Assembly: GCA_038521865.1 (NCBI GenBank)
Contig: JBCBKO010000002.1
Span: 594,798 to 658,797 of the forward strand
Direction of reading: 5' to 3'
Source of the DNA: Pseudomonadota bacterium
GTDB lineage: Bacteria; Pseudomonadota; Gammaproteobacteria; Steroidobacterales; Woeseiaceae
Length of the DNA: 64,000 nucleotides
Part shown: piece by piece, positions 1 to 58,649 of the stretch
How positions within the stretch are numbered: the stretch's first letter is position 1
Layout: the number at the start of each line of letters is the position of its first letter
Notes under the pieces: model-generated
What the model saw: the letters and a program-made list of their open reading frames with translations, nothing else
Databases searched by the model: none
Told to the model about the DNA's origin: nothing
Program-made: the position numbers and the translations under genes

Positions 1-1539
1 GTAAACGCCCGTTGATTGGAACGCGTCGAGTGCCGCGGTCATGCCGGCTTTGATGTCGTCATCGAACGCGCCCGTGTCGTTGATCTTGGCGATCAGCTCA
101 GCGTGCGAGTTGTTGGCGAAGTCGTGCATCGCAGCTTCGTAGTCGACCACTTTCTCGACCGGTACGTCGTCGAGGTAGCCTTCGTTCGCAGCGAACAATG
201 ACAGCGCCATCTCACCGACCGACAGCGGTGAGTACTGCTTCTGTTTCATCAATTCGGTGACACGCTGACCACGTTCGAGCTGCTTCCGGGTCGCCTCATC
301 AAGGTCGGAAGCAAACTGAGCAAATGCCGCCAGTTCGCGATACTGCGCGAGCGCCAGACGAACACCGCCGCCAAGCTTCTTGATGATTTTTGTCTGCGCA
401 GAACCACCCACACGAGATACCGAAAGACCCGCGTTGATCGCAGGCCGAATACCCGCGTTAAACAGATCGGTCTCCAGGAAGATCTGACCATCGGTAATTG
501 AGATCACGTTGGTCGGTACGAACGCCGACACGTCACCCGCCTGGGTTTCGATGATCGGCAACGCCGTCAGTGAGCCCGTCTTGCCCGTGACTTCGCCGTT
601 GGTTTGCTCTTCCACGAACTTCGCGTTGACGCGAGCGGCACGCTCAAGCAGACGAGAATGAAGGTAGAAAACGTCACCCGGATACGCTTCACGACCTGGC
701 GGACGACGCAGCAACAGGGAGACCTGGCGATAGGCCATCGCCTGCTTGGTCAAGTCATCAAAAATAATCAGAGCGTCTTCACCACGATCGCGGAAGTACT
801 CGCCCATCGCCGTGCCGGCGTATGGCGCGATGTACTGCATCGCCGGTGACTGGGCGGCAGAAGCGTTAACGACGATGGTGTGATCCATCGCGCCTTCTTC
901 TTCCAGCTTACGCACGACCGCTGCCACCGAGCTGTCTTTCTGCCCAACTGCAACGTAAATACATTTAATGCCGGTGCCTTTCTGGTTGATGATCGCATCG
1001 ATCGCCACAGCGGTCTTACCGGTCTGGCGGTCACCGATGATCAACTCACGCTGGCCGCGACCAATCGGCACCATCGCATCAATCGCTTTCAGGCCGGTCT
1101 GTACTGGCTGATCGACTGACTGACGGTCGATAACGCCCGGTGCGACTTTCTCGATCGGCGATGAGGTAGACGTCGTGATCGGTGCTTTGCCGTCGATCGC
1201 TTCACCCAGCGAGTTCACAACCCGGCCGAGCAACTCCGGACCTACTGGCACCTCGAGAATACGACCTGTTGTCTTGACTGTGTCGCCTTCGGAGATGTGC
1301 TTGTAGTCACCGAGAACAACCGCGCCCACTGAGTCCTGCTCGAGGTTCAGCGCGAGCCCGAAGGTGTTGCCCGGAAACTCGAGCATCTCACCGTACTTGG
1401 CATCAGCCAGCCCATGGATACGGGTGATGCCGTCTGATACGGCGATAACGGTACCGACGTCTCGTGCCTCGGCGGCTGCATCGAAGTTCTCAATTCGTGC
1501 TTTGATCAGTTCGCTGATCTCGGACGCTTTAAGTGACAT
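1..1539 (-). CDS. atpA: F0F1 ATP synthase subunit alpha; 3' end cut by the window edge (513 codons, stop just outside)
   Basis: Absent from the ORF track because there is no stop in the window. My reverse-complement translation from ATG 1539 gives [19 protein letters not shown].., a canonical AtpA N-terminus. The frame stays open to base 1. Lies directly downstream of atpH. Confidence 0.9.
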
Positions 1540-1557
1540 GGTCTGTATTCCTTAAAC

Positions 1558-2118
1558 TTACTTTTGCAGCACCGCGGACATACGCGAGAGCTTCGATCGT
1601 ACGGAGCCGTCGATGACAAAATCACCAGCGCGAATCACCGCACCGCCGATCAGCCCTTCGTCGACTTCCGTCGTAATGTCCACGTTGCGGCCCAGCCGTG
1701 ACTTCAGCGCCTCGGCAATTTCATTTTTCTGGGAGTCATCGATCGCACTGGCCGCCGTGATCGTGACGTTAACGATTTGCTCGGCCTTGCGCTTCAGCAG
1801 TTCAACCTGCTCCGCAATAACCGGCAGCAACGCCAGGCGATCGTTCTCGATCAGCAGCTTCAGCAGGTTTTCGCCATTACCGCCCGCAGCAGCCAACGGC
1901 TTCGCGTCCGGGATATCTGCGAATACGCCCTGCAAAATACCGAGCAGTTGCTCGGGGCTGACGGCCGGATGGTCGATCAGACCCGCGATCTGCGGATCGC
2001 TGACAACAATACCTGCAGCCTTCAAGGCAGCGGACATCGGGGCGAGCGAATCGCTCTCGCTCGCCACAGCGAAAGCCGCTTGAGCGTAGGGTCGTGCCAG
2101 CGTGTCGTTATCAGCCAT
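1558..2118 (-). CDS. atpH: F0F1 ATP synthase subunit delta (OSCP)
   Basis: 186-aa ORF starting MADNDTLARPYAQAAFAVA.., typical of delta. Sits between atpF and atpA. Confidence 0.9.
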   Translation of the reverse strand: MADNDTLARPYAQAAFAVASESDSLAPMSAALKAAGIVVSDPQIAGLIDHPAVSPEQLLGILQGVFADIPDAKPLAAAGGNGENLLKLLIENDRLALLPVIAEQVELLKRKAEQIVNVTITAASAIDDSQKNEIAEALKSRLGRNVDITTEVDEGLIGGAVIRAGDFVIDGSVRSKLSRMSAVLQK

Positions 2119-2147
2119 GCGGTATTACCTGCAACTCGATATGCCAG

Positions 2148-2618
2148 TTAGATCTGCTTGGCGAGATCGCCGATCAGATCTTTATGGACGCCCGCATCAA
2201 TTTCGCGACTCAGAATCTTCGACGCTGTGGCCAGAGCCAGCTCGGCTACCTGATCGCGCAACTCTTCGCGTGCGCGGTTGGTTTCCTGCTCGATCTCGGC
2301 TTGCGCCGCCGTCAGCTGGCGATCGCGCTCGCGAACACCCTCGTCTTTGCCTTCAGCGATGATCTCGTTCGCACGAGAGCGCGCCTGGTCGAGGATGTCT
2401 GCCGCTTGCGCTCGCGCTTCGGCAACCAACTCGTCGACTTTCGATTCGGCTTTCGCCAGATCCTGCTGACCGCGCTCGGCGGCGGCGAGACCGTCAGCGA
2501 TTTCCTGGCGACGTGCCTCAATCGCCTCGATCAACGGAGGCCAGACTTTCCACATCACGAATCCCACGAACAGCAGGAACGTGATCATTTGTCCGATGAC
2601 GCTAATATTTGGATCCAC
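2148..2618 (-). CDS. atpF: F0F1 ATP synthase subunit b
   Basis: 156 aa with one N-terminal TM (IGQMITFLLFVGFVMWKVWPPL) followed by a long charged helix. Operon position fits. Confidence 0.9.
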   Translation of the reverse strand: MDPNISVIGQMITFLLFVGFVMWKVWPPLIEAIEARRQEIADGLAAAERGQQDLAKAESKVDELVAEARAQAADILDQARSRANEIIAEGKDEGVRERDRQLTAAQAEIEQETNRAREELRDQVAELALATASKILSREIDAGVHKDLIGDLAKQI

Positions 2619-2665
2619 GTGCGATTACTCCGAATGCGTTACTCGAAACCGGTTACCCGGACGAA

Positions 2666-2953
<288 letters not shown>

Positions 2954-2982
2954 TCAAAACGCGTGAAGCGTGAACAAAAAAA

Positions 2983-3828
<846 letters not shown>

Positions 3829-4487: not shown

Positions 4488-5327
4488 ATGACGCAGTTTG
4501 ACCACGACACCATCGCCAGAGCGCTCGAAGAAGAGCAGCTTTTTATCCAATACCAGCCCAAAATGGCGCGCCCAACCGGTCAATCGGAGTGGGTCACTAC
4601 AGAGGCGGAATCATTGATTCGCTGGCGGCACCCGGATCAGGGGTTGGTATCACCGATGGAATTCCTCCCCACGGCTGTCGAGGTGGGCCTGATGCCCGCT
4701 ATTGGCGATTTCGTGCTCGAAAAGACACTGACCCAGCTAACGCGCTGGCGCGAGAGCGGGCTGAATCTCAACGGTTGCGTCAATCTCGATGCCTCCTTGT
4801 TACAAGACACAAGCCTCGCATCCCACTACGAACGCATAGTCAGCCAGTTCAACCTGCCGTGCGACGCCATTACCTTTGAAGTGGCGCAGCCCGGTATCGC
4901 CGGAGCTGAGGACCGATGCGCCCAGGTTCTGTCGGCTTTGCGCAGCCGCGGATTCCGTCTGTCGCTGGATGATTTCGGTGCGGCGAGAGAATCGCTGAGT
5001 TCCTTCGGCAAACTCGACTTCGATGAAATCAAGATTCACGCCTCGTTACTCATTGAGGCCCGCGAGAACATCATGACGAGGCACGCTCTGGCAGCGGTTA
5101 CCGGCATGGCTCACGCGCTTGGCATCACCGTCTGTGCGGAAGGGGTCGAGGATCAGGCGACCTTTGAATTCCTGAAAGAGATCAAGTGCGACAAGATGCA
5201 GGGCTTCTTCATATCTGAAGCCGTAATGCCCGATATCATCCAACGCGCCTATCCAGCAGTGGATGCTGCGAACACCATCGATGTGCTGAAAGAAGCGACG
5301 GGCGTTTACAAGTCGCTGCGCGCCTGA
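4488..5327 (+). CDS. Stand-alone EAL-domain protein (c-di-GMP phosphodiesterase-like, several motifs degenerate)
   Basis: 279 aa. QYQPK.., ESLIRWRHP (in place of EAL), N in VNLDAS, LDDFG, CAEGVE, QGFF. See the finding for deviations. Confidence 0.85.
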   Translation: MTQFDHDTIARALEEEQLFIQYQPKMARPTGQSEWVTTEAESLIRWRHPDQGLVSPMEFLPTAVEVGLMPAIGDFVLEKTLTQLTRWRESGLNLNGCVNLDASLLQDTSLASHYERIVSQFNLPCDAITFEVAQPGIAGAEDRCAQVLSALRSRGFRLSLDDFGAARESLSSFGKLDFDEIKIHASLLIEARENIMTRHALAAVTGMAHALGITVCAEGVEDQATFEFLKEIKCDKMQGFFISEAVMPDIIQRAYPAVDAANTIDVLKEATGVYKSLRA

Positions 5328-6276: not shown

Positions 6277-7068
6277 CTAGTGGGCTGCGGCGGCAGCTGC
6301 AAGTGACTCCTCACGACGAATGATCTCGCCAGCCAGGGCAAGGTAGGCCAACGCCCCCCTGGAATGCCGATCGTGCAGCAGCACTGGTCGGCCGAAACTG
6401 GGCGCTTCGGCGAGGCGCACATTGCGCGGGATGATCGTTCGGTACACCTTCTCACCGAAATGCTCGTGCAATTGAGCCGAGACGGCATTAGCCAGGTTGT
6501 TTCTCGGGTCAAACATCGTGCGTAGCAGCCCATAAACCTCCAGATCCGGGTTTACGGAATCACGCACCTGCTCGATCGTGGTCAGTAATGCGGTCAGCCC
6601 TTCGAGGGCGTAGTACTCGCATTGCATCGGAATCAACACACCATCGGCCGCCGTAAGCGCATTGACCGTCAACATGTTGATCGACGGTGGGCAATCAATC
6701 AGCACAAAATCGTACATGCCCAAGACCGGCTTCAATGCCTTGCGAAGTCGTAACTCGCGACCGATTTCCTGCAACAGCTGGACTTCGGCAAGCGTCAGGT
6801 CATCGTTGCCGGGCAATACCGCAAAGTTGCCCTCTGGCGCGGACACAATCGAGTCGGCAGCGCTCGCATCATTCAGCAAGACGTCGCAGGCGCTTCGTTC
6901 GAGGTTCATCTTGTCGATCCCGCAACCCATGGTCGCGTTGCCCTGCGGATCGATATCGATCAACAGAACACGGCGCTGCGTCGCCGCTAAAGAAGCGGCG
7001 AGATTCACGCTGGTCGTGGTTTTTCCAACACCACCCTTCTGGTTGGCGATCGCGAGGACGCGGGTCAT
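6277..7068 (-). CDS. parA: Chromosome partitioning ATPase ParA/Soj
   Basis: 263 aa with the deviant Walker A NQKGGVGKTTT and Walker A' LLIDIDPQGN. Confidence 0.92.
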   Translation of the reverse strand: MTRVLAIANQKGGVGKTTTSVNLAASLAATQRRVLLIDIDPQGNATMGCGIDKMNLERSACDVLLNDASAADSIVSAPEGNFAVLPGNDDLTLAEVQLLQEIGRELRLRKALKPVLGMYDFVLIDCPPSINMLTVNALTAADGVLIPMQCEYYALEGLTALLTTIEQVRDSVNPDLEVYGLLRTMFDPRNNLANAVSAQLHEHFGEKVYRTIIPRNVRLAEAPSFGRPVLLHDRHSRGALAYLALAGEIIRREESLAAAAAAH

Positions 7069-7121
7069 GCGTCAGCCCTCTTTATATTCGGTAGTTCTTA
7101 AAGGCCGGTTTTCTTTGAAAC

Positions 7122-7769
7122 CTAATGGTGGCGAACGGTCACGAGGTGGCGCTCACCGGTCAATAAGGGTACCACTACCTGGCGCTGCTCGGCGTGCCAG
7201 CCGGCCGGAAGTGCTCCAGATTCGTCGCTGGATAGCGACTGCCCCTTCAGCGCTACGATTTTTCCACCATCTGCTACCAGATGCTGTGTCCAGGCGACGA
7301 TATCGGCAAGGCTCGCGAATGCCCGGCAGGTCACGACATCGAAGGGCGTCTCGACATAATCCTCAACCCGCGCATGGATCGCTGACGCATTCTCGAGGCC
7401 GAGCGCATCGATGACTCGTTGCACAAACCGGACTTTCTTCGCCGATGCATCAAGCAGTACAAAGGTTTGGTCGGACTTTGTGATTGCCAATGGCAATCCC
7501 GGGAAGCCACCACCAGTGCCGACATCCAAGACACGGTCGCCCGAGATCGCGGGCGCTGCCGCCAGACTATCGAGCAAATGCTTGATGACCATATCGCGCG
7601 GGTCGCGTATTGCTGTCAGGTTGTAAGCGCGATTCCACTTACTCAACATTGCGACGATGATCAACAGATCGGTGATCTGAGCGCCGCTTAGCGCAAGATC
7701 CAGCTGCTTTGCCCCGGATTCCAGTGTCTCGCGAAGCGCAGGGTTTTGCAGTTCCGGAAATTCGTCCAT
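7122..7769 (-). CDS. rsmG: 16S rRNA (guanine527-N7)-methyltransferase RsmG (GidB)
   Basis: 215 aa with SAM motif VLDVGTGGGFPGLPLA. Conserved position next to parA. Confidence 0.88.
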   Translation of the reverse strand: MDEFPELQNPALRETLESGAKQLDLALSGAQITDLLIIVAMLSKWNRAYNLTAIRDPRDMVIKHLLDSLAAAPAISGDRVLDVGTGGGFPGLPLAITKSDQTFVLLDASAKKVRFVQRVIDALGLENASAIHARVEDYVETPFDVVTCRAFASLADIVAWTQHLVADGGKIVALKGQSLSSDESGALPAGWHAEQRQVVVPLLTGERHLVTVRHH

Positions 7770-7816
7770 TTAGGAGCAGGTCCTGATGCCCGTCTGGGCA
7801 CCAGGACCTGGCTTTC

Positions 7817-9067
7817 TTACTCGATGATTCGCAGCTCGACTCGACGGTTAGCCGCTTTGCCTTCGCGGGTTGAGTTATCCGCGATTGGCTCGGCTTCTCC
7901 GTAACCGCGCACCGACAGGTTGGCTTCGTTCGCACCTGCGTTCACCAGGTAGTTGCGAACTTCACGTGCACGCCGTGCAGACAGCGACTCGTTGTACTCG
8001 GCAGCGCCATCACTATCGGTGTGACCAGCAACTTCTACAACGAGGTCCGGGTTCTTACGAAGCGTCGCAGCGGCGTCATTCAACACCTGTTCCGCGCCCG
8101 GCACCAATCGGTCCGAGTTGGTCTCAAAGTTCACGCCAGGAAGACGGATCACAGCTTTGATTTCGCAACCACGAATATCGACGCGAACGCCAGCAACCGT
8201 GTTCGGGCAACGGTCCTTGCTATCGACGACGCTGTCGCCATCGGTATCGACTTCACAGCCTTTGGCATCCACGGTAACGCCTGCAGGTGAACTTGGGCAC
8301 TGATCCATGCCATCAACCACACCGTCTCCGTCGCCATCACGCACGATCTCGCAACCTGCGGCATCAACTTCAACACCGGCGCGAGTATTCGGGCAATTGT
8401 CGATGGCATCGACGACACCGTCGTTATCAGAGTCGAACTCACAACCATCCGAGCCTACCGTTCTGCCCAACGGCGTGCGCGGACAACGGTCGAGATCGTC
8501 CGTAACCCCATCGTTATCCGAATCGGAGAAACGTGGACCGGATCCGCCAAAAGCAAACTGGAACCCCAAGGTATAGATGTTGTCCTCGAAATCCATCCCA
8601 CCGAGCTGCGCACGGTAGCGGTATTGCAGTCGCAACCCGAAGTTCTCCGTCGGTGACAGCAATACACCGGCGCCGAGACTACCGACCGCTTCTTGCTCTT
8701 CACGATCGTCACCGAGATCTTCGTAGAGGCTTCCTACGCCACCCAGAAGATAAGGCGAGAACCAGCCTTCGCGGTTGAACACTCGCAATGCGTTGACACC
8801 CACTTCCAGGTGATCCTGAGCGTTGTTCGCATCGCCATCGAAGTCGGTGCTCTCAATAAATCCTTCGAAGCTCCATTTGGGCGAGTAGTTAACACCCAGG
8901 GTTAAGCCAAACCCTTCTGCATCCTCGATCACCCTATCCGGATCATCATCCACGAGGTTCAGTGAAGGTGTGATGTAGTAGGTGGATTCCCTGTCACCAG
9001 CAAAAACAGGTGACACCAAACAGATTGCGACCAGCATTAGCGCTGGCCGATATAAGCGATTCGTCAT
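7817..9067 (-). CDS. OmpA-family outer membrane protein with thrombospondin type-3-like calcium-binding repeats
   Basis: 416 aa: signal peptide, N-terminal beta-barrel-like region, 4 TSP3-like repeats, and a C-terminal OmpA_C peptidoglycan-binding domain (GHTDSDGAAEYNESLSARRA .. NRRVEL). Confidence 0.85.
   Translation of the reverse strand: MTNRLYRPALMLVAICLVSPVFAGDRESTYYITPSLNLVDDDPDRVIEDAEGFGLTLGVNYSPKWSFEGFIESTDFDGDANNAQDHLEVGVNALRVFNREGWFSPYLLGGVGSLYEDLGDDREEQEAVGSLGAGVLLSPTENFGLRLQYRYRAQLGGMDFEDNIYTLGFQFAFGGSGPRFSDSDNDGVTDDLDRCPRTPLGRTVGSDGCEFDSDNDGVVDAIDNCPNTRAGVEVDAAGCEIVRDGDGDGVVDGMDQCPSSPAGVTVDAKGCEVDTDGDSVVDSKDRCPNTVAGVRVDIRGCEIKAVIRLPGVNFETNSDRLVPGAEQVLNDAAATLRKNPDLVVEVAGHTDSDGAAEYNESLSARRAREVRNYLVNAGANEANLSVRGYGEAEPIADNSTREGKAANRRVELRIIE
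8165..8527 (-). repeat. Four tandem in-frame TSP3-like repeats (DxDxDGVxDxxDxCPxTxxGxxVDxxGCE)
   Basis: aa 181-301 of the OmpA-like protein: DSDNDGVTDDLDRCPRTPLGRTVGSDGCE / DSDNDGVVDAIDNCPNTRAGVEVDAAGCE / DGDGDGVVDGMDQCPSSPAGVTVDAKGCE / DTDGDSVVDSKDRCPNTVAGVRVDIRGCE. Confidence 0.8.
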
Positions 9068-9162
9068 GAGTTGTCCCTCTTACGGTTTTAGTTGCGTCTA
9101 ACTCGCACACCGAGTGGGCATTGTCCTGTCGAATGCCCGTCAGGACAAGAACAAGCGTCGTG

Positions 9163-9819
9163 CTATTTCTCGTGCTGGGTGGTGTAGAGCCCTTTCTGCG
9201 CAGAAAAGTAGGCCGCGAGCGCTTCGATATCGTCATCGGAGAGCGCGCCGGCCAGCCCCGCCATGACCGCATTTTTACGAACGTTCTCGCCGCCGGTTTC
9301 TTCCGCATTCGCCAGTCGGTACTGACGCAGGGCAGCGACGATGTAGTCTTTGTGTTGTCCCGCGAGATTCGGCCAGATTTCGTTGTTGCTAACGCCTTTC
9401 TCGCCATGGCACGCGACGCAGGTTTGTGACTTCTCTTTGCCTTTACTGACGCCCGCCGTTACGACATCCCCCTCCTGTACCTCGCCGCGACTCGCAAAGT
9501 AGGCCGCAAGATCCGCGATATCCTGATCACTCAGTGAGCCTGCCTGCGCGCGCATCGTCGCATGCGACCGCTCTCCGGAGCGGTAAGCCTTCAGTGCGAT
9601 CTGAATGTAGGTTTCTTGTTGGCCGCCCAACATGGGCACGCGGTAAGCAGGGTAGGCGTTGCGGTAGCCCTCGATGCCGTGGCATCCCAGGCAGGAGTAG
9701 GCCAAAACCTTACCCTTCTCAGCGTCACCGACGGTTTGGGCTGAAACTGCGCTCGCTGCAACAAGCAGCACGATTATCGCTGTTGCCTGCAGCAACAGCC
9801 GGAGAGAATCATTCGTCAT
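9163..9819 (-). CDS. Dihaem cytochrome c4
   Basis: Two CxxCH motifs (CLGCH, CVACH), each followed by a distal Met region. The start is moved from the ORF-track GTG 10023 to ATG 9819, which gives the signal peptide MTNDSLRLLLQATAIIVLLVAASAVSAQ. Confidence 0.85.
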   Translation of the reverse strand: MTNDSLRLLLQATAIIVLLVAASAVSAQTVGDAEKGKVLAYSCLGCHGIEGYRNAYPAYRVPMLGGQQETYIQIALKAYRSGERSHATMRAQAGSLSDQDIADLAAYFASRGEVQEGDVVTAGVSKGKEKSQTCVACHGEKGVSNNEIWPNLAGQHKDYIVAALRQYRLANAEETGGENVRKNAVMAGLAGALSDDDIEALAAYFSAQKGLYTTQHEK

Positions 9820-50601: not shown

Positions 50602-51143
50602 TGAGCAGGAATTTTCGCTATTGCCCTGTCTGCGCGACGGCACTCGTACCACAGCAGCATGGTGGCCGTATGCGCCTCGCGTGCCCTAATGCGAGTTGCG
50701 GCTGGGTGCACTGGGACAATCCGACGCCCGTGGTCGCTGCTATTGCGGAGAGAAACGACGCTGTCATTCAGGTTCGCAGTATTGGCTGGCCCCCAGGTTG
50801 GTTCGGGTTGGTTACCGGTTTTCTCGAAGCGGGAGAAACGCCGGAGGAAGGCGTGTTGAGAGAGGTTGAAGAGGAAATCGGCCTGTCCGGCACCCTCGGC
50901 GAGTTGGTGGGGCTGTATCCGTTCCACAGGATGAACCAGCTTCTCATCGTCTATCATGTCTCTATTCCGGATGGAGATATCCGACTGGACGAAACGGAAC
51001 TCGAGGACTGGCGCGAAGTCCCACTGGCAGAGGTTCGTCCCTGGGCGAGTGGCACCGGCTACGCCTTGCGCGACTGGATGCGGGGCCGCGGTTATGATTT
51101 CCCTGATGAGGCATTATTAAGCCTGGAGCGACGAGGAACATGA
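50601..51143 (+). CDS. NUDIX hydrolase with N-terminal zinc ribbon
   Basis: 180 aa: CPVC..(17)..CPNASC, then an intact Nudix box [28 protein letters not shown] overlap with the yibQ-like stop. Confidence 0.85.
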
Positions 51144-51994
51144 TGAGAGGTTTTGTGATCAGCTTTGCGATGCTTATCGCGATGGCGTCATCCGGCGCGG
51201 TTTGGTCACAGTCAGGTGATCTCTTGAATAACGCCATCTGTCCCGAGGTGTGGCAACCGGTGTGCGGTGCAGACGGCAATACGTATGCGAATCTCTGTCA
51301 GGCGAAAAAGGCCGAAGTTGCTGTTGCTGCCGACGGAGAATGCGAGGGCGAAGACGACCAGCTCGCCACAGAGCCAGACGCCAACGATCGTTGCCCGCCC
51401 CGATTCGCGCCGGTCTGTGGCAGCGATGGCAATACGTACGCTAACAGTTGCTTCGCGACGCTCGCTGGTGTTGAAACGGAATCGACCGGTTTGTGCGACG
51501 ACCAGACATGTCCACAGGATCGGCTGCCGGTTTGCGGTAGAAATGGACAAACATTTTTGAACCGGTGCGAGGCTGATCGTGCTCGAGTGGGCATCTTGTA
51601 TACGGGCACCTGCGATACTGCCTCCTGTCCGGATGTCTTTTCGCCTGTGTGCGGTGCAAACGGGGAAACCTACGCAAATGCTTGTGCCGCTGACGCCGCC
51701 GGAATCGATGTGGTGCGTGACTCTGCGTGTGGTCAGCGTCGCTGTCCGGCGTTGTTCGTGCCGGTCTGTGGCGCGGACGACGTGACCTATGGGAACGCCT
51801 GCCAAGCCGAGCGCGCAGGTGTGCGAATCGTGGCGCCAGGCGATTGCGCCGGCAATAATTGTCCCAGATTGTTTCAGCCGGTCTGCGGGAGCGACGGTCG
51901 TACCTACGATAATCGCTGCCTTCTGGATGCGGCTGGCCAAAGGTTGCTGTATGCCGGGGAGTGCTCAACTACGGGTATCGGTGCGGCGAAGTGA
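51140..51994 (+). CDS. Secreted protein made of six tandem Kazal-like (four-Cys) serine protease inhibitor domains
   Basis: 284 aa: signal peptide [23 protein letters not shown], then six CP-x5-PVCG-x-(D/N)G-x-T(Y/F)-x-N-x-C..C units. ATGA overlap with the NUDIX stop. Confidence 0.8.
51239..51964 (+). repeat. Six in-frame ~117-153-nt coding repeats (Kazal-like units)
   Basis: First Cys of each unit at aa 34, 85, 124, 163, 202, 241. 24 Cys in total, 4 per unit. Confidence 0.85.
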
Positions 51995-52488: not shown

Positions 52489-52571
52489 TTCTTTTTTTGA
52501 ACCGTTTTTCCTGCGGCCGCTTCTTACCGGTCGACCCAACTGGTCTCAATTCAGTTTTAGGAGAAACGTTG

Positions 52572-53744
52572 ATGAAACTCAGGAATGCAATTGCCCGCAG
52601 TGTGTTGTGCGCAGGCGCAGTGTTGACCGCGGGGATGGCGCTCGCCGAAGACACGTCCTCAATCCCCTCAGTCGTTGTCACCATTGAAAACAGCGCCCCC
52701 TCGCGCGGCAGTTTCCAGACACCGTTCTGGATCGGTTTTCATGATGGGCAATTTGATTTATATAACCGCGGCGAGCCACTGTCCGCCGAAGGCCTTGTTC
52801 CTGGCGATGCGGTAGAGCGGGTGGCCGAAGACGGCATCATAGGGCCGCTGAACGCCGCGTTTGCCGAGGCGCAGCCCGGGGCGTCGCAGTCGATTGTTTT
52901 CGGACCTTCGGGACCATTGGCGCCAGGCGACTCTGCGTCGACGACACTCAACGTCAACCCAGAGCTGGATCGGTATTTCAGCTACATCTCGATGGTGTTG
53001 CCGAGCAACGATGCTTTCATCGCCAACGGCAACCCTTTTGCGCATGAGATTTTCGATCGTCGTGGGCGGTTTGTTGCGAAGTCATTCGCGGTACCGGGGA
53101 ATGCAGTGCTCGATGCGGGAACAGAGCTGAATGATGAAATCGCAGCAAACACAGCATTTCTCAATCAGGCAGGTCCAGATATTGGCGTCGCTACAGATGG
53201 CGTAGTCGAGATTCATCCGGGCTTCCGGCTCGATGGCAGCTTTCCCGACCGCGTACTCACGCACCCGGTCCTCGGTGTCGCTGACTTCACTGCCACCAAC
53301 TATCGTGCAGCGACGGTCAGCTTTCGGTTTGTCGATCTCGGCAAAAGAAACAAGTTTCGCATAAGGTTGAATCCACGCCAGGAAGTCAGCTCTACCCTCG
53401 TCGATAGCCGGGGTAGTGGCACTGCGACCGCAGTTTCCGACGGCGTCGACTCGGTCAGCATTGAAGGGCTGTTCCGTCGACTATCAAGCGATGTCGTTGC
53501 AGCACACCTGCATCTCGGCGCGGCGGGTACGAATGGTCCGGTCGTCGCTGATCTTTCAGCGTTTGTCAGCAACCACGGCATTTCAGCTGCAGTGTACGCG
53601 AGTGATGTCACCGGCCCGTTGGCGGATTCGCCCTCACCGATGCTGGCGCTGTTGAATGAGATGGCCGCAGGTAATGTCTATCTAAACATCCATACCGCCA
53701 ACAATCCGGCGGGAGAGATTCGCGGGCAATTGCGACTCAGATAA
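52572..53744 (+). CDS. Secreted spondin_N + CHRD two-domain protein
   Basis: 390 aa from ATG 52572 (RBS AGGAG): signal peptide, spondin-like N-domain (VTIENSAPSRGSFQTPFWIGFHDG.., MVLPSNDAFIANG), C-terminal CHRD (AAHLHLGAAGTNGPVV, VYLNIHTANNPAGEIRGQL). Confidence 0.7.
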   Translation: MKLRNAIARSVLCAGAVLTAGMALAEDTSSIPSVVVTIENSAPSRGSFQTPFWIGFHDGQFDLYNRGEPLSAEGLVPGDAVERVAEDGIIGPLNAAFAEAQPGASQSIVFGPSGPLAPGDSASTTLNVNPELDRYFSYISMVLPSNDAFIANGNPFAHEIFDRRGRFVAKSFAVPGNAVLDAGTELNDEIAANTAFLNQAGPDIGVATDGVVEIHPGFRLDGSFPDRVLTHPVLGVADFTATNYRAATVSFRFVDLGKRNKFRIRLNPRQEVSSTLVDSRGSGTATAVSDGVDSVSIEGLFRRLSSDVVAAHLHLGAAGTNGPVVADLSAFVSNHGISAAVYASDVTGPLADSPSPMLALLNEMAAGNVYLNIHTANNPAGEIRGQLRLR

Positions 53745-53782: not shown

Positions 53783-54925
53783 TTACCTGCCCGTTGTGGC
53801 TTGTTGTTCCAACATCCGGTCGGACCAATTCAGCAGGCGGGCGATAATTTCATCATGCGTTGCGTCGGGATAACGATGCATAAGGCATGCGGCCATAGCC
53901 GCAACAATCGGTGCAGCGATCGAGTGACCGGTGACTACATCGTAGGAGGCCATGGGCGCCGTGCTGATCGCTGAACGCGGAGCGATGACCACCGTCATGG
54001 TGTCGTTTGCCGCCATTGGTTGAATGCTGCCCACGGCGTAAATGACGCCTGGTCGAGGAGCAGGAAAGCGACGTTCCGGTGATCGGTCTTCGTCATAGGC
54101 CGCGATGACCAAACTGCCATTGCGGATTAGTATGCCAACCAGGCGATCGAGCAATGGGTCGCGAACTCCCGAAAGGCTGAGGTTAACGATATCGGGGCGC
54201 AAATCGATCGCGGCATTCAGTGCTTTGGACAGAGTGCGTGTGCTGCAGATGCCCTTGCCTCGATCTTGTTCCCAACAAGCGCGCAGTAGATGTGTTTGCG
54301 CCTCGTCAGCAATCCCTCGCATACCCTTTTCCGATCGAGGTTTCGATGAGATCAGGCCTACCACCGCCGTCCCATGACGCTCCTTCATCGGCATGCCTTG
54401 CTGACCGACAAAATCGCTGACGGTGAGTTTAGCGTCCAGAAGGTCCGGGTGGCTGGTGTCGACATCAGTATCAATAACCGCAATGACGGTGTTGCCACCC
54501 CGTTCAGTGACCGTGGCCATGAAATCGTTGAGCAGATCGTTGGGGGTCGGTGCCATGGCACTGGACTCGACACGCAATCCCTGTTCGTTCTGAATCCAGA
54601 GCACTCTCGGGTCTATGCGTAGCTTTTGCAACGTCTGCGAATCCGCGCCTCCGATTTCGATGCAGTAAACACCAACCTGATTGATTGGCCAGTCTGCCAA
54701 CACCTCAACGTCGTAGGTAGCCGCGATATCCATCGCGATCTGATGCACATCAACGCTGTGCTCACTATTCATCTCGCGGCTGTACATTTCGCCCGACATA
54801 CCATCGCCGCTCATCGGGTCGTCAATGACGACAACCCACCGGTCCGATTCAGGCGAAGGTAATACCGAACAAGCCATTACGCAGAACGAAAGCGTGGCTA
54901 AAGCGCCGACTCGCAAGCGACGCAT
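53783..54925 (-). CDS. Subtilisin-like serine protease (S8), predicted lipoprotein with its own pro-like segment
   Basis: Asp AVIDTDVD, His HGTAVVG, Ser TGHSIAAP. Lipobox-like FCVMAC. The start is either ATG 54925 (2 nt after the anti-sigma stop) or GTG 54931 (GTGA overlap). Confidence 0.85.
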   Translation of the reverse strand: MRRLRVGALATLSFCVMACSVLPSPESDRWVVVIDDPMSGDGMSGEMYSREMNSEHSVDVHQIAMDIAATYDVEVLADWPINQVGVYCIEIGGADSQTLQKLRIDPRVLWIQNEQGLRVESSAMAPTPNDLLNDFMATVTERGGNTVIAVIDTDVDTSHPDLLDAKLTVSDFVGQQGMPMKERHGTAVVGLISSKPRSEKGMRGIADEAQTHLLRACWEQDRGKGICSTRTLSKALNAAIDLRPDIVNLSLSGVRDPLLDRLVGILIRNGSLVIAAYDEDRSPERRFPAPRPGVIYAVGSIQPMAANDTMTVVIAPRSAISTAPMASYDVVTGHSIAAPIVAAMAACLMHRYPDATHDEIIARLLNWSDRMLEQQATTGR

Positions 54926-54927
54926 GA

Positions 54928-55491
54928 TCACAGCGTCTCGACAAACCGTACAGCCGGTTCCTTGCGCAGCGCATTTATCGTTTGGGTTAGGTCTTCAGAG
55001 GCTGGAACCCGGACGTCGGCAGCACCAACTTCAGGGTAACTCGTCATCAATTCGAGACCATAGCGTTCTAGCAGCAGCTGCATATCTGAGCTGCTAGTCA
55101 CCGCCAGTCGAATTATCGGCTCGGCCGTGACAGCCGGTTGATCTGTCAGCGTCTCAAACTGTGGTGTCGGCTTAGTCAGTGGGTAGGTGAAAATCACCCC
55201 AGCGACCAGAGCCGCTGCGATACCAACGGGGAGTGCTCGCATGCGCTGTCGCGGTTTGGACTCTCTACCGTTGAGCATACGTTCAAAGGCGAGCTGATCC
55301 GGGCGCTGCTCGAGTGGCTCGTCCGTGCGGCGAATCGCGTTTCTTAGATCGCGTTCCCACTCGACTTGTTGTCGAAATTCCTGGTGTTCGCGCATGGCGG
55401 CCTCCACGGCTTCGCGATCAGCTTCAGACAGATGTCCACCAAGGTAGTCGGGTATCAGGAGCGACAGCGCTTGCAATGAGTCCGCGTTCAC
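54928..55491 (-). CDS. Single-pass anti-sigma factor with a subtilisin-propeptide (I9)-like periplasmic domain
   Basis: 187 aa from GTG 55491 (GTGA overlap with the sigma stop, verified). N-terminal LLIPDYLGGHLSEADREAVEAAM.., TM ALPVGIAAALVAGVIFTY, periplasmic tail ending ALRKEPAVRFVETL. Confidence 0.6.
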   Translation of the reverse strand: MNADSLQALSLLIPDYLGGHLSEADREAVEAAMREHQEFRQQVEWERDLRNAIRRTDEPLEQRPDQLAFERMLNGRESKPRQRMRALPVGIAAALVAGVIFTYPLTKPTPQFETLTDQPAVTAEPIIRLAVTSSSDMQLLLERYGLELMTSYPEVGAADVRVPASEDLTQTINALRKEPAVRFVETL

Positions 55492-56159
55492 GCCGGCCGC
55501 CTTCCTGCAAGGCGATTCGGGTCTGCCAGTCGGGACACGACATGACGGATGCGTGTCCTTGCGTGGTGCAGGCGCGTCTTTACCGTGCCCTGTGGGCACT
55601 GCACGATCTCGCTGATCTCGCTGGTGGAATAGCCTTCAAAGTATGAGAGCTCAATAACCATTCGTTGTCGATGATTGAGTTGTTGCATTGCAGCTGAAAC
55701 CAGCTCGGTTTCCTCAAACTGCTCGTTTGTGCTCGTTGCAAGCTCGGTGGGTTCACGCCACAAACGGCTTAATAGTGAGCGCTTGCGCTGTTCCTTCTTC
55801 AGGACACGGACGCATTGACGATAAGCGATCGCGAATATCCAGCTTGAAGGCTTCGCCTCAGCTCTAAAGCCGTCCGCATGCTCCCAGATACTCAGCATGA
55901 CGTCGTTATAGGTTTCGTCGATCAGTGGTTGATCATCCGTCAGGCGTCGGAGAAATCCTCTAAGCCTGCCCTGATAGCGGTCATAAATCATCCGCATGGC
56001 GGCTCGATCCCGCTCTCGGCCGATTCGCCCAAGCAGCTTTGCATCTTCCCGATCACTTTCCGTGCTCCGTCCGGGTGCACTCCCGGTGGATTCTTGCCCA
56101 TCTTGAAGAGTAAGAGCACGTTCTTCCTGCAACGGTTCAATCGTCACGGCAGAATTCAC
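55488..56159 (-). CDS. ECF-type RNA polymerase sigma-70 factor
   Basis: 223 aa. Region 2 (..MIYDRYQGRLRGFLRRL.. DVMLSIWE), region 4 (RMVIELSYFEGYSTSEISEIVQCPQGTVKTRLHHAR). GTG start; the ~35-aa N-terminal extension is uncertain. Confidence 0.88.
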   Translation of the reverse strand: MNSAVTIEPLQEERALTLQDGQESTGSAPGRSTESDREDAKLLGRIGRERDRAAMRMIYDRYQGRLRGFLRRLTDDQPLIDETYNDVMLSIWEHADGFRAEAKPSSWIFAIAYRQCVRVLKKEQRKRSLLSRLWREPTELATSTNEQFEETELVSAAMQQLNHRQRMVIELSYFEGYSTSEISEIVQCPQGTVKTRLHHARTRIRHVVSRLADPNRLAGRRPA

Positions 56160-56213: not shown

Positions 56214-58649
56214 CTAGAAATCTTCGATGAGTCGTCCCCGAGAGTCTTTCTGGTGCGGTAACCAGACTAGCCCCACAAAGTGGATTTGGATATCGGTCGA
56301 CTTTGGCTTGATCTCGACCTCTGTCAATTCCTCATCCTGTGCGTCGTAACGCGCATCGAGCGCTGCAACATCTGCATCAAAAGTTTCTTGCAACATGCGC
56401 AAGTCTTCACGCACACGCGCTGCTGTTTCTTCAGCGCGAGCTACGTCACCCGCCTCTTTACGCATCCCGCCGACGTTCTTGACGGCCGACCCAATGCTGC
56501 GCGCTGACGTCGACGATACGCGTTTGCGGCCCAGCACTGCCCCAAGAATGGCGGTACCGAATGAAATTGCGGTGTCGAGTTTTTTCTTGCGGCTTTGTTC
56601 CGACTCTCTTTCGATTGCCTGTTCAGCACGCATCAAACGCGCTTCCAGGGTGTTCACCTTGCTGTTGTAGCGCTTTCTCAGCTTCCCAACGGCGATGTCA
56701 CGTTGCTCCGATGCCAGAACCTGCAGGCGCGCCCGGAAGTCGCCCTCTGATTCGTGCGCCTCTGAGGTCACCTTCATTGCCGCGCTTCGGTAGAGCACAA
56801 CCGGTTGGCTCTTTCGCAACCAGCGTTTGAAGTTACGTTCCCATTTGGCGTAAGACTTCGGATTGGTCAGCGGATCCGGAATCGGCGAATGGCCGCTTTT
56901 CTCGTCCGGGCGCTCGCTCAACAGATCGTCGAGTTGAATGTCGAGTATCGCCGATTCGTCCCAGTCAACCGGCACTGGGCCATCTTCAGGTATCACGCTT
57001 GCCACGCAGTGTCTTTCTGTCTCCACCTTGTAGCGGGCGGAACTATAGACCAGCTCCGCAGCACCAATGACCGCAGGTCGATATACCGTGTCGATGTCAC
57101 CTGCGCCTTCCACCCAGAACTGGCGAATACTCTTGTCGAGTTTCGGCGTTGTAGCAACTGCAGCTTTCCACAATGCCTTGCTATCGCTCGCCGACAGGGT
57201 TGCCGCTTGCATGGCCTTGTTCGCTTCCTTCTGGAATTCGCCGCGACGTTTGTCCATCAGCGTGCGAATCTGGTCGCGTGTCAGAGGTCCTGCAAGGTAC
57301 GACATCACCCAGCGCGTGCCGAAGACCACCGGCTCGGACTCGTGAACGTTGTGCAGCAGAAAACGACGCTTACCCAGTCCGGCTAACGTTTGCTCCATTG
57401 CCTCGCGGTCGAATTTGCCACCGGCAGCTGCGCCCTCCAGCCCTTCCATTACCCGCGCCTTGTCACGCTCGGTCTGTAGTCGACCGATCATCCAGGTGCC
57501 CGTGTTCGACAGGCCTTTGTAATCAAGGTCAACGGGGTTTTGTGTTGAGAGCACCAACCCAAGACCGTAGGCGCGCGCTTGCTTCAGCAGCGTAAGCAGC
57601 AACTGCTTCGAGGGTGGGTTCGCAACCGGTGGCATGTATCCGAAGATCTCATCCATGTAGAGCATGGCACGCAGGCTCCCGGTGCCTGGCTGTGCACGCA
57701 TCCACGCGATGAGGTTGTTGAGCAACATACACACGAAGAACATGCGCTCGGCATCGGATAGATGCGCGATCGATAGGATCGACACGCGTGGTTTTCCACT
57801 GTCGGTGTACAACAGGTTCGCTGCACTCAATGGCTCGCCTTCAAGCCACGCCTCAAAACCGGGCGCTGCGAGCAGGCTGTTGAGCTGCATCGCGAGCGCA
57901 AAACGGTCTTTCGCGGGATAGACATCGTCGAGCGCCATGACACCGATCTTCTCGAGCGGTGGGTTTTGGATCACGGCGATCAGCGTCGGGAGGTCGAGTG
58001 ACTGTCCTTGCTGCCAGTAGTGATCCAGCAGGTTGGCGATCAGGATGTGTTCGCGACTGGTGACCGGGTCTGCGTTGATGCCAAGGAGTGCAAGAATGCT
58101 CGTGGCTGTGACCTGTACGCGCTCGCGATAAAGGTCGCGATCCTCGCGCAGCGCGGGCGCAGGCGCGTCGAACGACTTCAAAACAGAAATGGGCAACCCG
58201 GCGTTTGAACCGGGGGTGAAAATATTGAGATCAACACGTTCGCGGAACGTGCGCACACGCGCTGGGTCCTGGCCCCATTGCCCAATACCCTTTTTCCAGA
58301 GCGCGGCCTGATCGGCGGCGAATTGATCGACCGTCTGACCTTTGTTCGACGCTTCCTGCGCGTTGACCCACGGCGCAAAGTCTTCGCCCTTGAACTGTGG
58401 GAAGGTCAGCATGAGGTTGCCGAGATCGCCTTTCGGATCGATGGCAATGACAGGAATCGAGTCCATTGCCGCTTCCTCGATCATGCCGACGCCGAGGCCC
58501 GTTTTGCCGCTGCCGGTCATACCGATGATAACCGCGTGCGTGTTCAGGTCTTTGGAATCGTAGAGCACCATATCGTCGGTGAGTTCATCGTTAGCCTCAT
58601 CGATTCGTTTACCCAGATAGAAAGCGCCCAGCTTTTCGAAACCGCTCAT
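56214..58649 (-). CDS. HerA/FtsK-superfamily P-loop ATPase (YjgR/DUF853-like core) with a ~350-aa uncharacterised C-terminal extension
   Basis: 811 aa: Walker A GMTGSGKTGLG followed by AIDPKGDL, Walker B LYMDEIFGY, STQNPVDLDYKGLSNTGTWMIGRLQTERD. The C-terminal part is coiled-coil-rich. Confidence 0.72.
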   Translation of the reverse strand: MSGFEKLGAFYLGKRIDEANDELTDDMVLYDSKDLNTHAVIIGMTGSGKTGLGVGMIEEAAMDSIPVIAIDPKGDLGNLMLTFPQFKGEDFAPWVNAQEASNKGQTVDQFAADQAALWKKGIGQWGQDPARVRTFRERVDLNIFTPGSNAGLPISVLKSFDAPAPALREDRDLYRERVQVTATSILALLGINADPVTSREHILIANLLDHYWQQGQSLDLPTLIAVIQNPPLEKIGVMALDDVYPAKDRFALAMQLNSLLAAPGFEAWLEGEPLSAANLLYTDSGKPRVSILSIAHLSDAERMFFVCMLLNNLIAWMRAQPGTGSLRAMLYMDEIFGYMPPVANPPSKQLLLTLLKQARAYGLGLVLSTQNPVDLDYKGLSNTGTWMIGRLQTERDKARVMEGLEGAAAGGKFDREAMEQTLAGLGKRRFLLHNVHESEPVVFGTRWVMSYLAGPLTRDQIRTLMDKRRGEFQKEANKAMQAATLSASDSKALWKAAVATTPKLDKSIRQFWVEGAGDIDTVYRPAVIGAAELVYSSARYKVETERHCVASVIPEDGPVPVDWDESAILDIQLDDLLSERPDEKSGHSPIPDPLTNPKSYAKWERNFKRWLRKSQPVVLYRSAAMKVTSEAHESEGDFRARLQVLASEQRDIAVGKLRKRYNSKVNTLEARLMRAEQAIERESEQSRKKKLDTAISFGTAILGAVLGRKRVSSTSARSIGSAVKNVGGMRKEAGDVARAEETAARVREDLRMLQETFDADVAALDARYDAQDEELTEVEIKPKSTDIQIHFVGLVWLPHQKDSRGRLIEDF

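Follow-up and report, generated by a model that had tools for sequence, protein, structure and literature searches.

A conserved sigma factor, anti-sigma factor and subtilase module whose anti-sigma factor resembles the protease's prodomain and its predicted autoprocessing junction

Within a 64,000-nucleotide (nt) stretch of DNA from a Pseudomonadota bacterium of the family Woeseiaceae (Gammaproteobacteria; Steroidobacterales; NCBI GenBank assembly GCA_038521865.1, contig JBCBKO010000002.1, positions 594,798 to 658,797 of the forward strand), the whole of which is referred to here as the window, three minus-strand genes encode a sigma factor of the extracytoplasmic function (ECF) type, a single-pass anti-sigma factor of 187 amino acids (aa) and a subtilase of peptidase family S8 (hereafter S8). 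Our main new result is that the anti-sigma factor carries, beside a homologue of the prodomain of S8, a motif that copies the predicted pro/mature junction of the protease (P4 to P1') and co-varies with it from genome to genome. The original prediction made for this locus had described the three genes as stitched together, and direct reading of the sequence found its start and stop overlaps and its peptide segments all as described: the stop codon of the sigma gene (TGA, 55490..55488) shares bases with the start of the anti-sigma gene (GTG, 55491..55489) in the form of GTGA, and the anti-sigma stop (TGA, 54930..54928) overlaps a possible GTG start at 54931 and lies 2 nt ahead of the ATG of S8 at 54925. 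The identities proposed for the three products are likewise borne out by Pfam, NCBIfam and structure-profile matches: the first is an ECF sigma factor, the second a single-pass anti-sigma factor (of class I) and the third a subtilase of family S8. Their features are listed in Table 1.

Table 1. Positions of the genes, protein segments and promoters in the window; an arrow marks the presumed scissile bond
Feature	Coordinates	Strand	Remarks
ECF sigma factor gene	55488..56159	-	sigma-2 and sigma-4 regions; 5' end uncertain
Anti-sigma factor gene	54928..55491	-	187 aa, single-pass
Anti-sigma cytoplasmic class-I domain, aa 1-75	55267..55491	-	zinc-less ZAS relative
Anti-sigma transmembrane helix, A86-Y103	55183..55236	-	hydrophobic stretch ALPVGIAAALVAGVIFTY
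Juxtamembrane junction mimic FETLT, aa 112-116	55144..55158	-	proposed S8 cleavage site, P4-P1↓P1'
Periplasmic subtilase-prodomain-like domain, aa 125-187	54931..55119	-	Pfam, AlphaFold, Foldseek, hhalign
S8 subtilase gene	53783..54925	-	380 aa from ATG 54925; GTG 54931 is an alternative start
S8 lipobox VMAC, Cys19	54869..54880	-	Cys19 invariant in alignment A2 (17 sequences)
S8 own (cis) prodomain, aa 29-113	54587..54841	-	beta-alpha-beta-beta-alpha-beta in AlphaFold; pro-like segment ends QKLRIDPRVLWIQNEQ
Predicted S8 autoprocessing junction, L117-R-V-E120↓S121	54563..54577	-	profile columns 125-129
ECF-type promoter P1, ATTGAACCGTTGCAGGAAGAACGTGCTCTTACT	56109..56141	-	top weight-matrix match, 18.9 bits; -35 TGAACC, N16, -10 CTCTTAC
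Second ECF-type promoter copy, TTTGAACCGTTTTTCCTGCGGCCGCTTCTTACC	52496..52528	+	second weight-matrix match, 18.8 bits; 45 nt upstream of ATG 52572
Secreted spondin/CHRD-domain gene	52572..53744	+	NF038123 spondin 7e-38, CHRD 3.4e-22; signal peptide MKLRNAIA...; convergent with the trio

The trio is a conserved module. A scan with an S8 alignment, retaining one genome per species, returned 80 loci of Gamma-, Beta- and Alphaproteobacteria and of Acidobacteriota, and their six-frame open reading frames (ORFs) were searched with hidden Markov models of the three proteins. Colinear sigma/anti-sigma/S8 trios were found in 75 of these 80 genomes; in one more (L016, the labels with L and P being our own) the sigma and anti-sigma genes are divergent from S8, two loci are broken by contig ends, and another two (L040 and L047) have S8 without its partner genes, so that, of the 78 genomes that are informative, 76 contain the trio. 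Seven independent contexts from metagenomes, around S8 homologues of 53% down to 33% identity, gave the same picture, six of them consisting of a sigma factor, a protein of ~190-210 aa and S8 in overlapping or near-abutting order; the sigma and middle genes of the seventh (L004) appear fragmented and its contig has low coverage. The co-conservation on which the original prediction hinged is therefore strong.

The middle protein has the layout that was ascribed to it, i.e., LLIPDYLGGHLSEADREAVEAAM near the N-terminus, one hydrophobic helix (A86 to Y103) and a tail ending ALRKEPAVRFVETL, and inspection of the sequence agrees with the reported absence of an HxxxCxxC zinc motif. Its homologues were collected by an exhaustive HMMER search (a word-indexed search gave just three near-identical proteins and a profile re-search few more), which yielded 116 clusters at 50% identity, nearly all of 180-230 aa and matched end to end; the transmembrane position is hydrophobic throughout an anti-sigma alignment (A1). 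The N-terminal domain is modelled by AlphaFold as a helical bundle with a predicted local distance difference test score (pLDDT) of 91-98. Taken alone, the window's protein gives weak matches (zf-HC2, E 0.014; NCBIfam 'antisigma', 1.7e-6, under the curated cut-off), while a family profile built from 59 relatives matches the solved anti-sigma factors RslA (3hug_B, 1e-6) and ChrR (2q1z_B, 0.0026). Because of these profile matches, and because zf-HC2 is matched by 14 of the 59 family members and HxxxCxxC is kept in some relatives (L007, P0127 and P0141), we regard it as a zinc-less member of the class-I family. Its target would be the co-encoded sigma factor, as adjacency and the GTGA overlap suggest. 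It could be argued that the arrangement is a chance juxtaposition or an annotation artefact, the middle ORF being no real anti-sigma factor or the overlaps being meaningless, since the zf-HC2 match falls under the Pfam cut-off and the NCBIfam match, though significant, stays at 28 bits where 100 is the curated cut-off. However, the full-length architecture common to the 116 clusters, the matches of the family profile to RslA and ChrR and the order of genes kept in 75 of 80 genomes make this scarcely credible, and we consider it effectively refuted already.

The third gene encodes a subtilase (Peptidase_S8, 9e-20) whose catalytic triad (D152, H184 and S335) and oxyanion residue (N248) are invariant in an alignment of 17 homologues (A2); as a mycosin (TIGR03921) it scored 102.9 bits, below the cut-off of 278.75. 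In its AlphaFold model (predicted template modelling score 0.84) an N-terminal beta-alpha-beta-beta-alpha-beta domain is followed by a strand at residues 116-120, and the model as a whole matches the unautoprocessed structures of pro-subtilisin E and pro-Tk-subtilisin in alignments of 363-380 columns (3whi_A, 4e-20; also 2zwo, 2z2z and 2e1p). On account of this full-length alignment we consider S8 to be a classical zymogen with a predicted docked N-terminal prodomain, which is also what became of the pro-like segment originally noticed in the protein. The lipid anchor proposed for S8 fared less uniformly: a lipobox is found in the window's clade, but it is not a family-wide feature, a crude pattern recovering it in ~56 of 83 relatives and the remainder having ordinary signal peptides. 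With about a third of the relatives so equipped, a relay through an outer-membrane lipoprotein is weakened as a general mechanism. Two further cysteines, Cys217 and Cys227 (ACW...C), are invariant in the 17 homologues and flank a variable loop of the catalytic domain, where they probably form a family-specific disulphide.

The periplasmic tail of the anti-sigma factor resembles the prodomain of S8 at several levels. It matches Pfam PF22148 (Fervidolysin_NPro-like; aa 131-185, E 1.1e-6, 29.4 bits with the cut-off at 21), as do 8 of the 59 relatives, and AlphaFold2, run on the family alignment, folds residues 126-186 into a beta-alpha-beta-beta-alpha-beta domain (pLDDT 95-98). The top Foldseek matches of this model in the Protein Data Bank (PDB) were the prosegments of subtilisin BPN' and subtilisin E (3cnq_P, 3whi, 1spb_P and 1scj_B), further ones being the propeptide of Tk-subtilisin (2z56_B), the EpiP prodomain, fervidolysin (1r6v) and the Aeromonas protein ORF2 (3wqb_B and 2mk4); superposition on 3cnq_P gave a target-normalised TM-score of 0.66 and a root-mean-square deviation of 2.3 over 66 columns, and that on 2z56_B a TM-score of 0.72. 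When the profile of the anti-sigma tails was compared with that of the S8 pro-regions (hhalign), the match reached a probability of 90% (E 1.7e-6, 46 columns) and paired an L-R-x-D-P-R-V-x-x-x-E/Q-P signature common to both. These comparisons show that the tail is a homologue of the prodomain of S8 itself, and hence that one protease is co-encoded with two prodomain modules, as had been proposed. The Pfam family named in that proposal does not apply: PF05922 (Inhibitor_I9) was not matched by the 187-aa protein at E values up to 1, and a single-sequence search of the PDB with the tail returned no match. In the functional sense a prodomain lies N-terminal to its own catalytic domain and is cleaved from it; the tail stands at the C-terminus of a different protein, as its ectodomain, and inhibiting or chaperoning S8 would be a putative role only. 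Throughout the 80-genome survey this tail architecture and the S8 gene almost always occur together.

Between the membrane helix and the prodomain-like domain, the anti-sigma factors share a near-invariant motif, [YF]x[TAG]L[SGT], represented in the window by FETLT. Among 77 sequences the first position is Y in 62 and F in 14, the third T in 53 and A in 11, and the fourth L in 71, followed by S, G or T; T114 and L115 are nearly invariant in alignment A1. The segment is left unstructured by AlphaFold and lies roughly 8-10 residues past the membrane helix. Its counterpart in S8 follows right after the last strand of the prodomain (profile columns 125-129, [F/Y]-x-[T/V/A/G]-[L/Q/..]-[G/A/S]). Pro-subtilisin E aligns without gaps to the S8 profile (HMMER) and places its known autoprocessing site, AHEY↓A, on columns 125-129 as P4-P1↓P1', and the coordinates of this alignment agree with the PDB match 3whi_A. 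When the anti-sigma motif was compared with each of the 381 five-column windows of the S8 profile, paired by genome, columns 125-129 came out best by a wide margin, with a BLOSUM sum of 812 against 366 for the runner-up. Genome-paired sequences have 149 identical positions versus 104 +/- 6 after shuffling, and none of 20000 shuffles, which ignore shared phylogeny, reached 149. At position P2, A is matched by A in 9 of 11 cases, G by G in all 5, and T by T or V in 41 of 53, and in some genomes the pentamer is identical in both proteins, e.g., YRTLG in L088.

We postulate that S8 docks on the mimic prodomain of the anti-sigma factor and cuts the mimic junction, thereby performing a dedicated site-1 cleavage and freeing the sigma factor; we give this reading about an even chance of being correct. 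The anti-sigma factor would offer the periplasm two copies of the recognition elements of S8, the prodomain homologue as a docking or inhibitor module and the junction [YF]xTL↓[ST], and S8 would be produced as a zymogen from the same operon. Once matured, S8 would bind the mimic prodomain and cut the mimic junction, leaving a periplasmic stub of ~10-15 residues; an RseP-type general site-2 protease could then clear the stub, and the released sigma factor would transcribe its own operon along with neighbouring secreted-protein genes, here that of the spondin/CHRD protein. The position of the motif near the membrane suits a site-1 cut. The putative protease-gated switch of the original prediction has gained in strength through the co-varying copy of the autoprocessing junction on the anti-sigma factor.

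Several points weigh against such a cleavage, the shared phylogeny left in by the shuffles being one of them. The window's own pair is weak, LRVE↓S and FETL↓T being alike only at P4, P2 and P1', and the P1 residue of the S8 junction is Glu where the anti-sigma motif has Leu. With the motif on the N-terminal side of the docking domain, prodomain and junction stand in the opposite order from the natural one; to make the cut, a docked S8 would require a looping back of the 9-residue linker, unless it cut an adjacent molecule instead. In Escherichia coli, lipoproteins with Ser at position +2 are sorted to the outer membrane; the S8 lipobox of the window's clade carries Ser at +2, which by analogy would put S8 in the outer membrane, apart from the inner-membrane anti-sigma factor. 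Finally, if S8 destroyed the protein that represses its own operon, the result would be positive feedback with no evident trigger.

An opposite sign is conceivable as well, with the mimic prodomain and pseudo-junction holding mature S8 inhibited at the membrane. The bound S8 would shield the anti-sigma factor, and when S8 is scarce or drawn off by substrates, housekeeping proteases would degrade the bare tail and the operon would be induced, such that the anti-sigma factor both regulates the protease and measures its level. This homeostatic arrangement agrees with the established behaviour of subtilisin prodomains as tight inhibitors and chaperones, with the more usual employment of negative feedback by operons, and with the existence of a separate prodomain-like chaperone, ORF2 of the Aeromonas protease ASP, which is among the structural matches of the tail (3wqb_B and 2mk4); Pfam ORF_2_N is weakly matched by two members of the anti-sigma family. 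The length of the C-terminus bears on it too. By the alignment of subtilisin E to the S8 profile, ~8 residues past the last strand are needed for a cleaved prodomain end to reach S1, and most relatives have 6-8 (mode 8), i.e., the length expected of a product-form prodomain that ends in S1, and C-terminal binding in the cleft may take place in those family members. In the window, as in L001, its closest relative, the count is 2, which falls short of the active site, and this makes it unlikely here that the C-terminal ..FVETL is bound in the cleft as had been suggested; FETLT, on the N-terminal side of the domain, is the likelier cleft-binding element. Against inhibition also stand the prodomain that S8 has of its own, which makes the need for a second chaperone not obvious, and the near-invariant P4-P1' motif that co-varies with the autoprocessing site, more simply explained as a cut site. 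On balance we regard the homeostatic arrangement as unlikely, though it is the main rival. Doubtful, and somewhat more speculative, is a true zymogen-mimicry switch, a proteolytic switch of a new class, in which the anti-sigma factor is an evolutionarily rearranged S8 prodomain plus junction, release and cleavage of a prodomain, the event by which the protease becomes active, is read out as transcription, and the freed fragment re-inhibits S8 to give a pulse-like, self-limiting response; if true, it would be a general and re-engineerable way of coupling the activation state of a protease to gene expression.

Whichever sign applies, a conserved promoter of ECF type stands ahead of the three genes. 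Anchoring on TGAAC revealed a conserved motif upstream of the sigma genes, TTGAACC(T)TT-N11-GGnAyynAC, with TCTC(G/T)TAC as the -10 element in the window's clade. A position weight matrix built from 39 related loci, the window excluded, was scanned over both strands of all 64 kb, and its two best matches were P1, ahead of the operon, and a plus-strand copy ahead of the spondin/CHRD gene, the third-best match scoring 13.8 bits; random 64-kb windows contain matches of at least 18.8 bits in 1.5% of trials. The promoter of L001 has the same boxes and a diverged spacer, and 50 of 81 loci have a leave-one-out match of at least 15 bits at the expected place, ahead of sigma. The -35 box contains the AAC that characterises autoregulated ECF promoters, and we infer that these promoters depend on this sigma factor. 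S8 would then depend on it as well, through the promoter ahead of the operon and, in L016, where S8 stands apart from sigma, through a copy directly ahead of the S8 gene. Other copies in relatives are divergent from sigma or ~0.7 kb downstream of S8, and the genes downstream of the motif are those of CHRD and DUF4214 proteins, of PSCyt1-type cytochrome-like lipoproteins and of an outer-membrane beta-barrel. With a conserved promoter upstream of sigma and beside neighbouring genes, the operon is very probably autoregulated and in control of a small local set of envelope proteins.

The spondin/CHRD protein probably belongs to this regulon. CHRD genes adjoin the trio in 14 of 89 loci and the promoter motif stands ahead of them in L002, L048, L023, L079 and L018; this sigma factor may be the regulator of bacterial CHRD proteins. 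The spondin/CHRD genes of relatives lie, for example, at 1517-3010 (L018), 8147-9340 (L002) and ~6969-8200 (L048), and the L018 protein joins three CHRD domains with a PSCyt1 cytochrome-c-like domain in one chain. A small lipoprotein recurs behind the promoter in many loci of Burkholderiales and Steroidobacteraceae (GLDANGRPI...SIQ..VFTP.C..CH, with a CxxCH haem motif; Pfam PSCyt1), e.g., at L021 6749, L051 6780, L057 352, L023 1205, L043 2339 and L033 2852, and may be a core output of the regulon. Such neighbours lend themselves to a third explanation, according to which S8 is a mere output of the sigma factor that, e.g., processes co-regulated secreted proteins, while the tail responds to an unrelated signal and the site-1 cut falls to a different protease. 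Downstream regulon genes are common in ECF operons, the promoter is found ahead of CHRD, PSCyt1-type and other secreted-protein genes whose products are possible S8 substrates, folds of the beta-alpha-beta-beta-alpha-beta plait type are common, and the Foldseek matches have modest E-values (5e-4 to 2e-2). However, the homology between the tail and the S8 prodomain is based on sequence profiles and goes beyond the fold, the junction mimic is specific to the S8 junction and co-varies with it, and tail architecture and S8 gene are nearly always together; we therefore find it quite improbable that S8 is an output and nothing else, and the site-1 reading remains the one that we favour.

The sigma factor itself matches Sigma70_r2 (5.5e-12), Sigma70_r4_2 (4.8e-16) and Sigma70_ECF (1.2e-7) in Pfam and TIGR02937 with 92 bits (cut-off 42.9), and shows no Pfam match to region 1 or region 3, in keeping with an ECF (group IV) factor; the closest NCBIfam model is the SigK-like PRK09646 (97 bits against a cut-off of 226). 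Its start codon is uncertain, because the strongest promoter match of the window (56141..56109) sits inside the called ORF, downstream of GTG 56159; the same holds for L001, where the promoter is also within the called 5' end of sigma (4780-4900). The stretch from the expected transcription start (~56100) to the conserved LLGRIG helix has no in-frame ATG, GTG or TTG; the first such codon is that of M55, and a start there would cut region 2 short. A non-canonical start codon (e.g., CTG at L42) may be used, or else a second promoter further upstream serves GTG 56159.

We place the module among the proteolytically controlled ECF anti-sigma factors, with the co-encoding of S8 and the copy of its prodomain and junction as the new elements. 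It is most easily compared with the sigma-E/RseA/DegS/RseP system of E. coli, which also has a single-pass class-I anti-sigma factor cut first in the periplasm near the membrane and then by an intramembrane site-2 protease, and in which the freed ECF sigma factor autoregulates its own operon. DegS, however, is an unlinked PDZ protease of the HtrA family (S1C) activated by the C-termini of outer-membrane proteins, whereas the candidate here is an operon-encoded S8, and the periplasmic domain of RseA binds RseB and has no resemblance to its protease, whereas here the anti-sigma factor mimics an S8 prodomain and junction. In Bacillus subtilis, SpoIVB cleaves SpoIVFA and so licenses the processing of pro-sigma-K; there, a secreted serine protease is likewise the signal that unlocks the intramembrane proteolysis controlling a sigma factor, but the protease family, the substrate and the logic of compartments differ and prodomain mimicry is absent. 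The ORF2 protein of Aeromonas sobria (3wqb and 2mk4) is, similarly to the tail, a separately encoded prodomain-like protein that works in trans on a periplasmic subtilase-family protease, ASP; to judge by PDB and Pfam naming, ASP lacks a propeptide of its own and ORF2 is soluble. In the module described here, by contrast, S8 has retained a prodomain of its own and the copy in trans is attached to a transcription switch.

With the subtilisin propeptides (MEROPS I9; BPN', subtilisin E, Tk-subtilisin and the PF22148 fervidolysin type) the tail shares the fold, an LxxDPxVxxxE signature at helix 2/strand 4, and a substrate-like segment with hydrophobic P4 and P1. It differs in being the C-terminal ectodomain of an anti-sigma factor with no catalytic domain fused behind it, in having its junction-like motif before the domain, and in leaving PF05922 unmatched. 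The logic is also that of the B. subtilis pairs RsiW/PrsW and RsiV/signal peptidase and of the cell-surface-signalling anti-sigma factors of Pseudomonas with Prc/CtpA (PMC4183432, PMC8844934, PMC10392083), but none of these involves a subtilase, recruitment through a copy of the protease's own prodomain or translational coupling of protease to substrate. Our full-text literature searches returned no description of an anti-sigma factor wired as a subtilase-prodomain mimic, in line with the original remark that no characterised ECF system is known to be built in this manner; the main text of the ECF reclassification paper (PMC7826278) mentions no subtilase context, and an entry in the ECF Hub is possible. 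If the favoured reading is true, the biology of prodomains would extend from folding and inhibition to signal transduction. It would then be, to our knowledge, the first case of a signalling substrate that recruits a protease by copying the protease's prodomain and autoprocessing junction. For most ECF sigma/anti-sigma groups we know of neither the signal nor the site-1 protease, and here the sequence alone names a candidate protease, S8, and a five-residue site; with both named, the hypothesis becomes directly testable in cultured carriers of the module, which include Janthinobacterium, Duganella, Massilia, Dyella and Luteibacter, individual carriers being Duganella sp. Root336D2 (L035), Dyella marensis CS5-B2 (L072) and Massilia aerilata (L085). 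The module also ties secreted proteins that are themselves uncharacterised (CHRD/spondin proteins and PSCyt1-type cytochrome-like lipoproteins) to a defined regulator.

Among the neighbours of the trio, a gene for a protein of 230-263 aa with no Pfam match stands directly 3' of S8 on the same strand in some relatives (L002 7231-7923, L004 7272-8051 and L009 5065-5856) and might belong to the operon as an optional fourth gene; the window has no such gene. Upstream of the sigma gene and on the same strand, with 55 nt between them, ends a gene for a HerA/FtsK-like P-loop ATPase of 811 aa (56214-58649, minus strand; DUF87 and HerA_C; PADLOC mad8 2.5e-14, HerA weak), and the gap holds a GC-rich palindrome, CCGGCCGG. 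This ATPase prompted us to consider a defence island, a reading that we rejected, as PADLOC matched neither the sigma factor nor the anti-sigma factor, and S8 with generic subtilase models only; in the contexts examined the ATPase gene adjoins the trio in the window and L001 only. Membership in the module was likewise rejected for a gene encoding six Kazal domains, which recurs next to the trio in L001 only. Its product (51140-51994, plus strand) is a secreted protein of 284 aa with six Kazal-type serine-protease-inhibitor domains (Kazal_1 3.5e-45, six stretches), and the gene overlaps the flanking NUDIX and GNAT genes and lies 1.8 kb from that of S8; a multi-Kazal protein so close to a subtilase is unusual in a proteobacterium.

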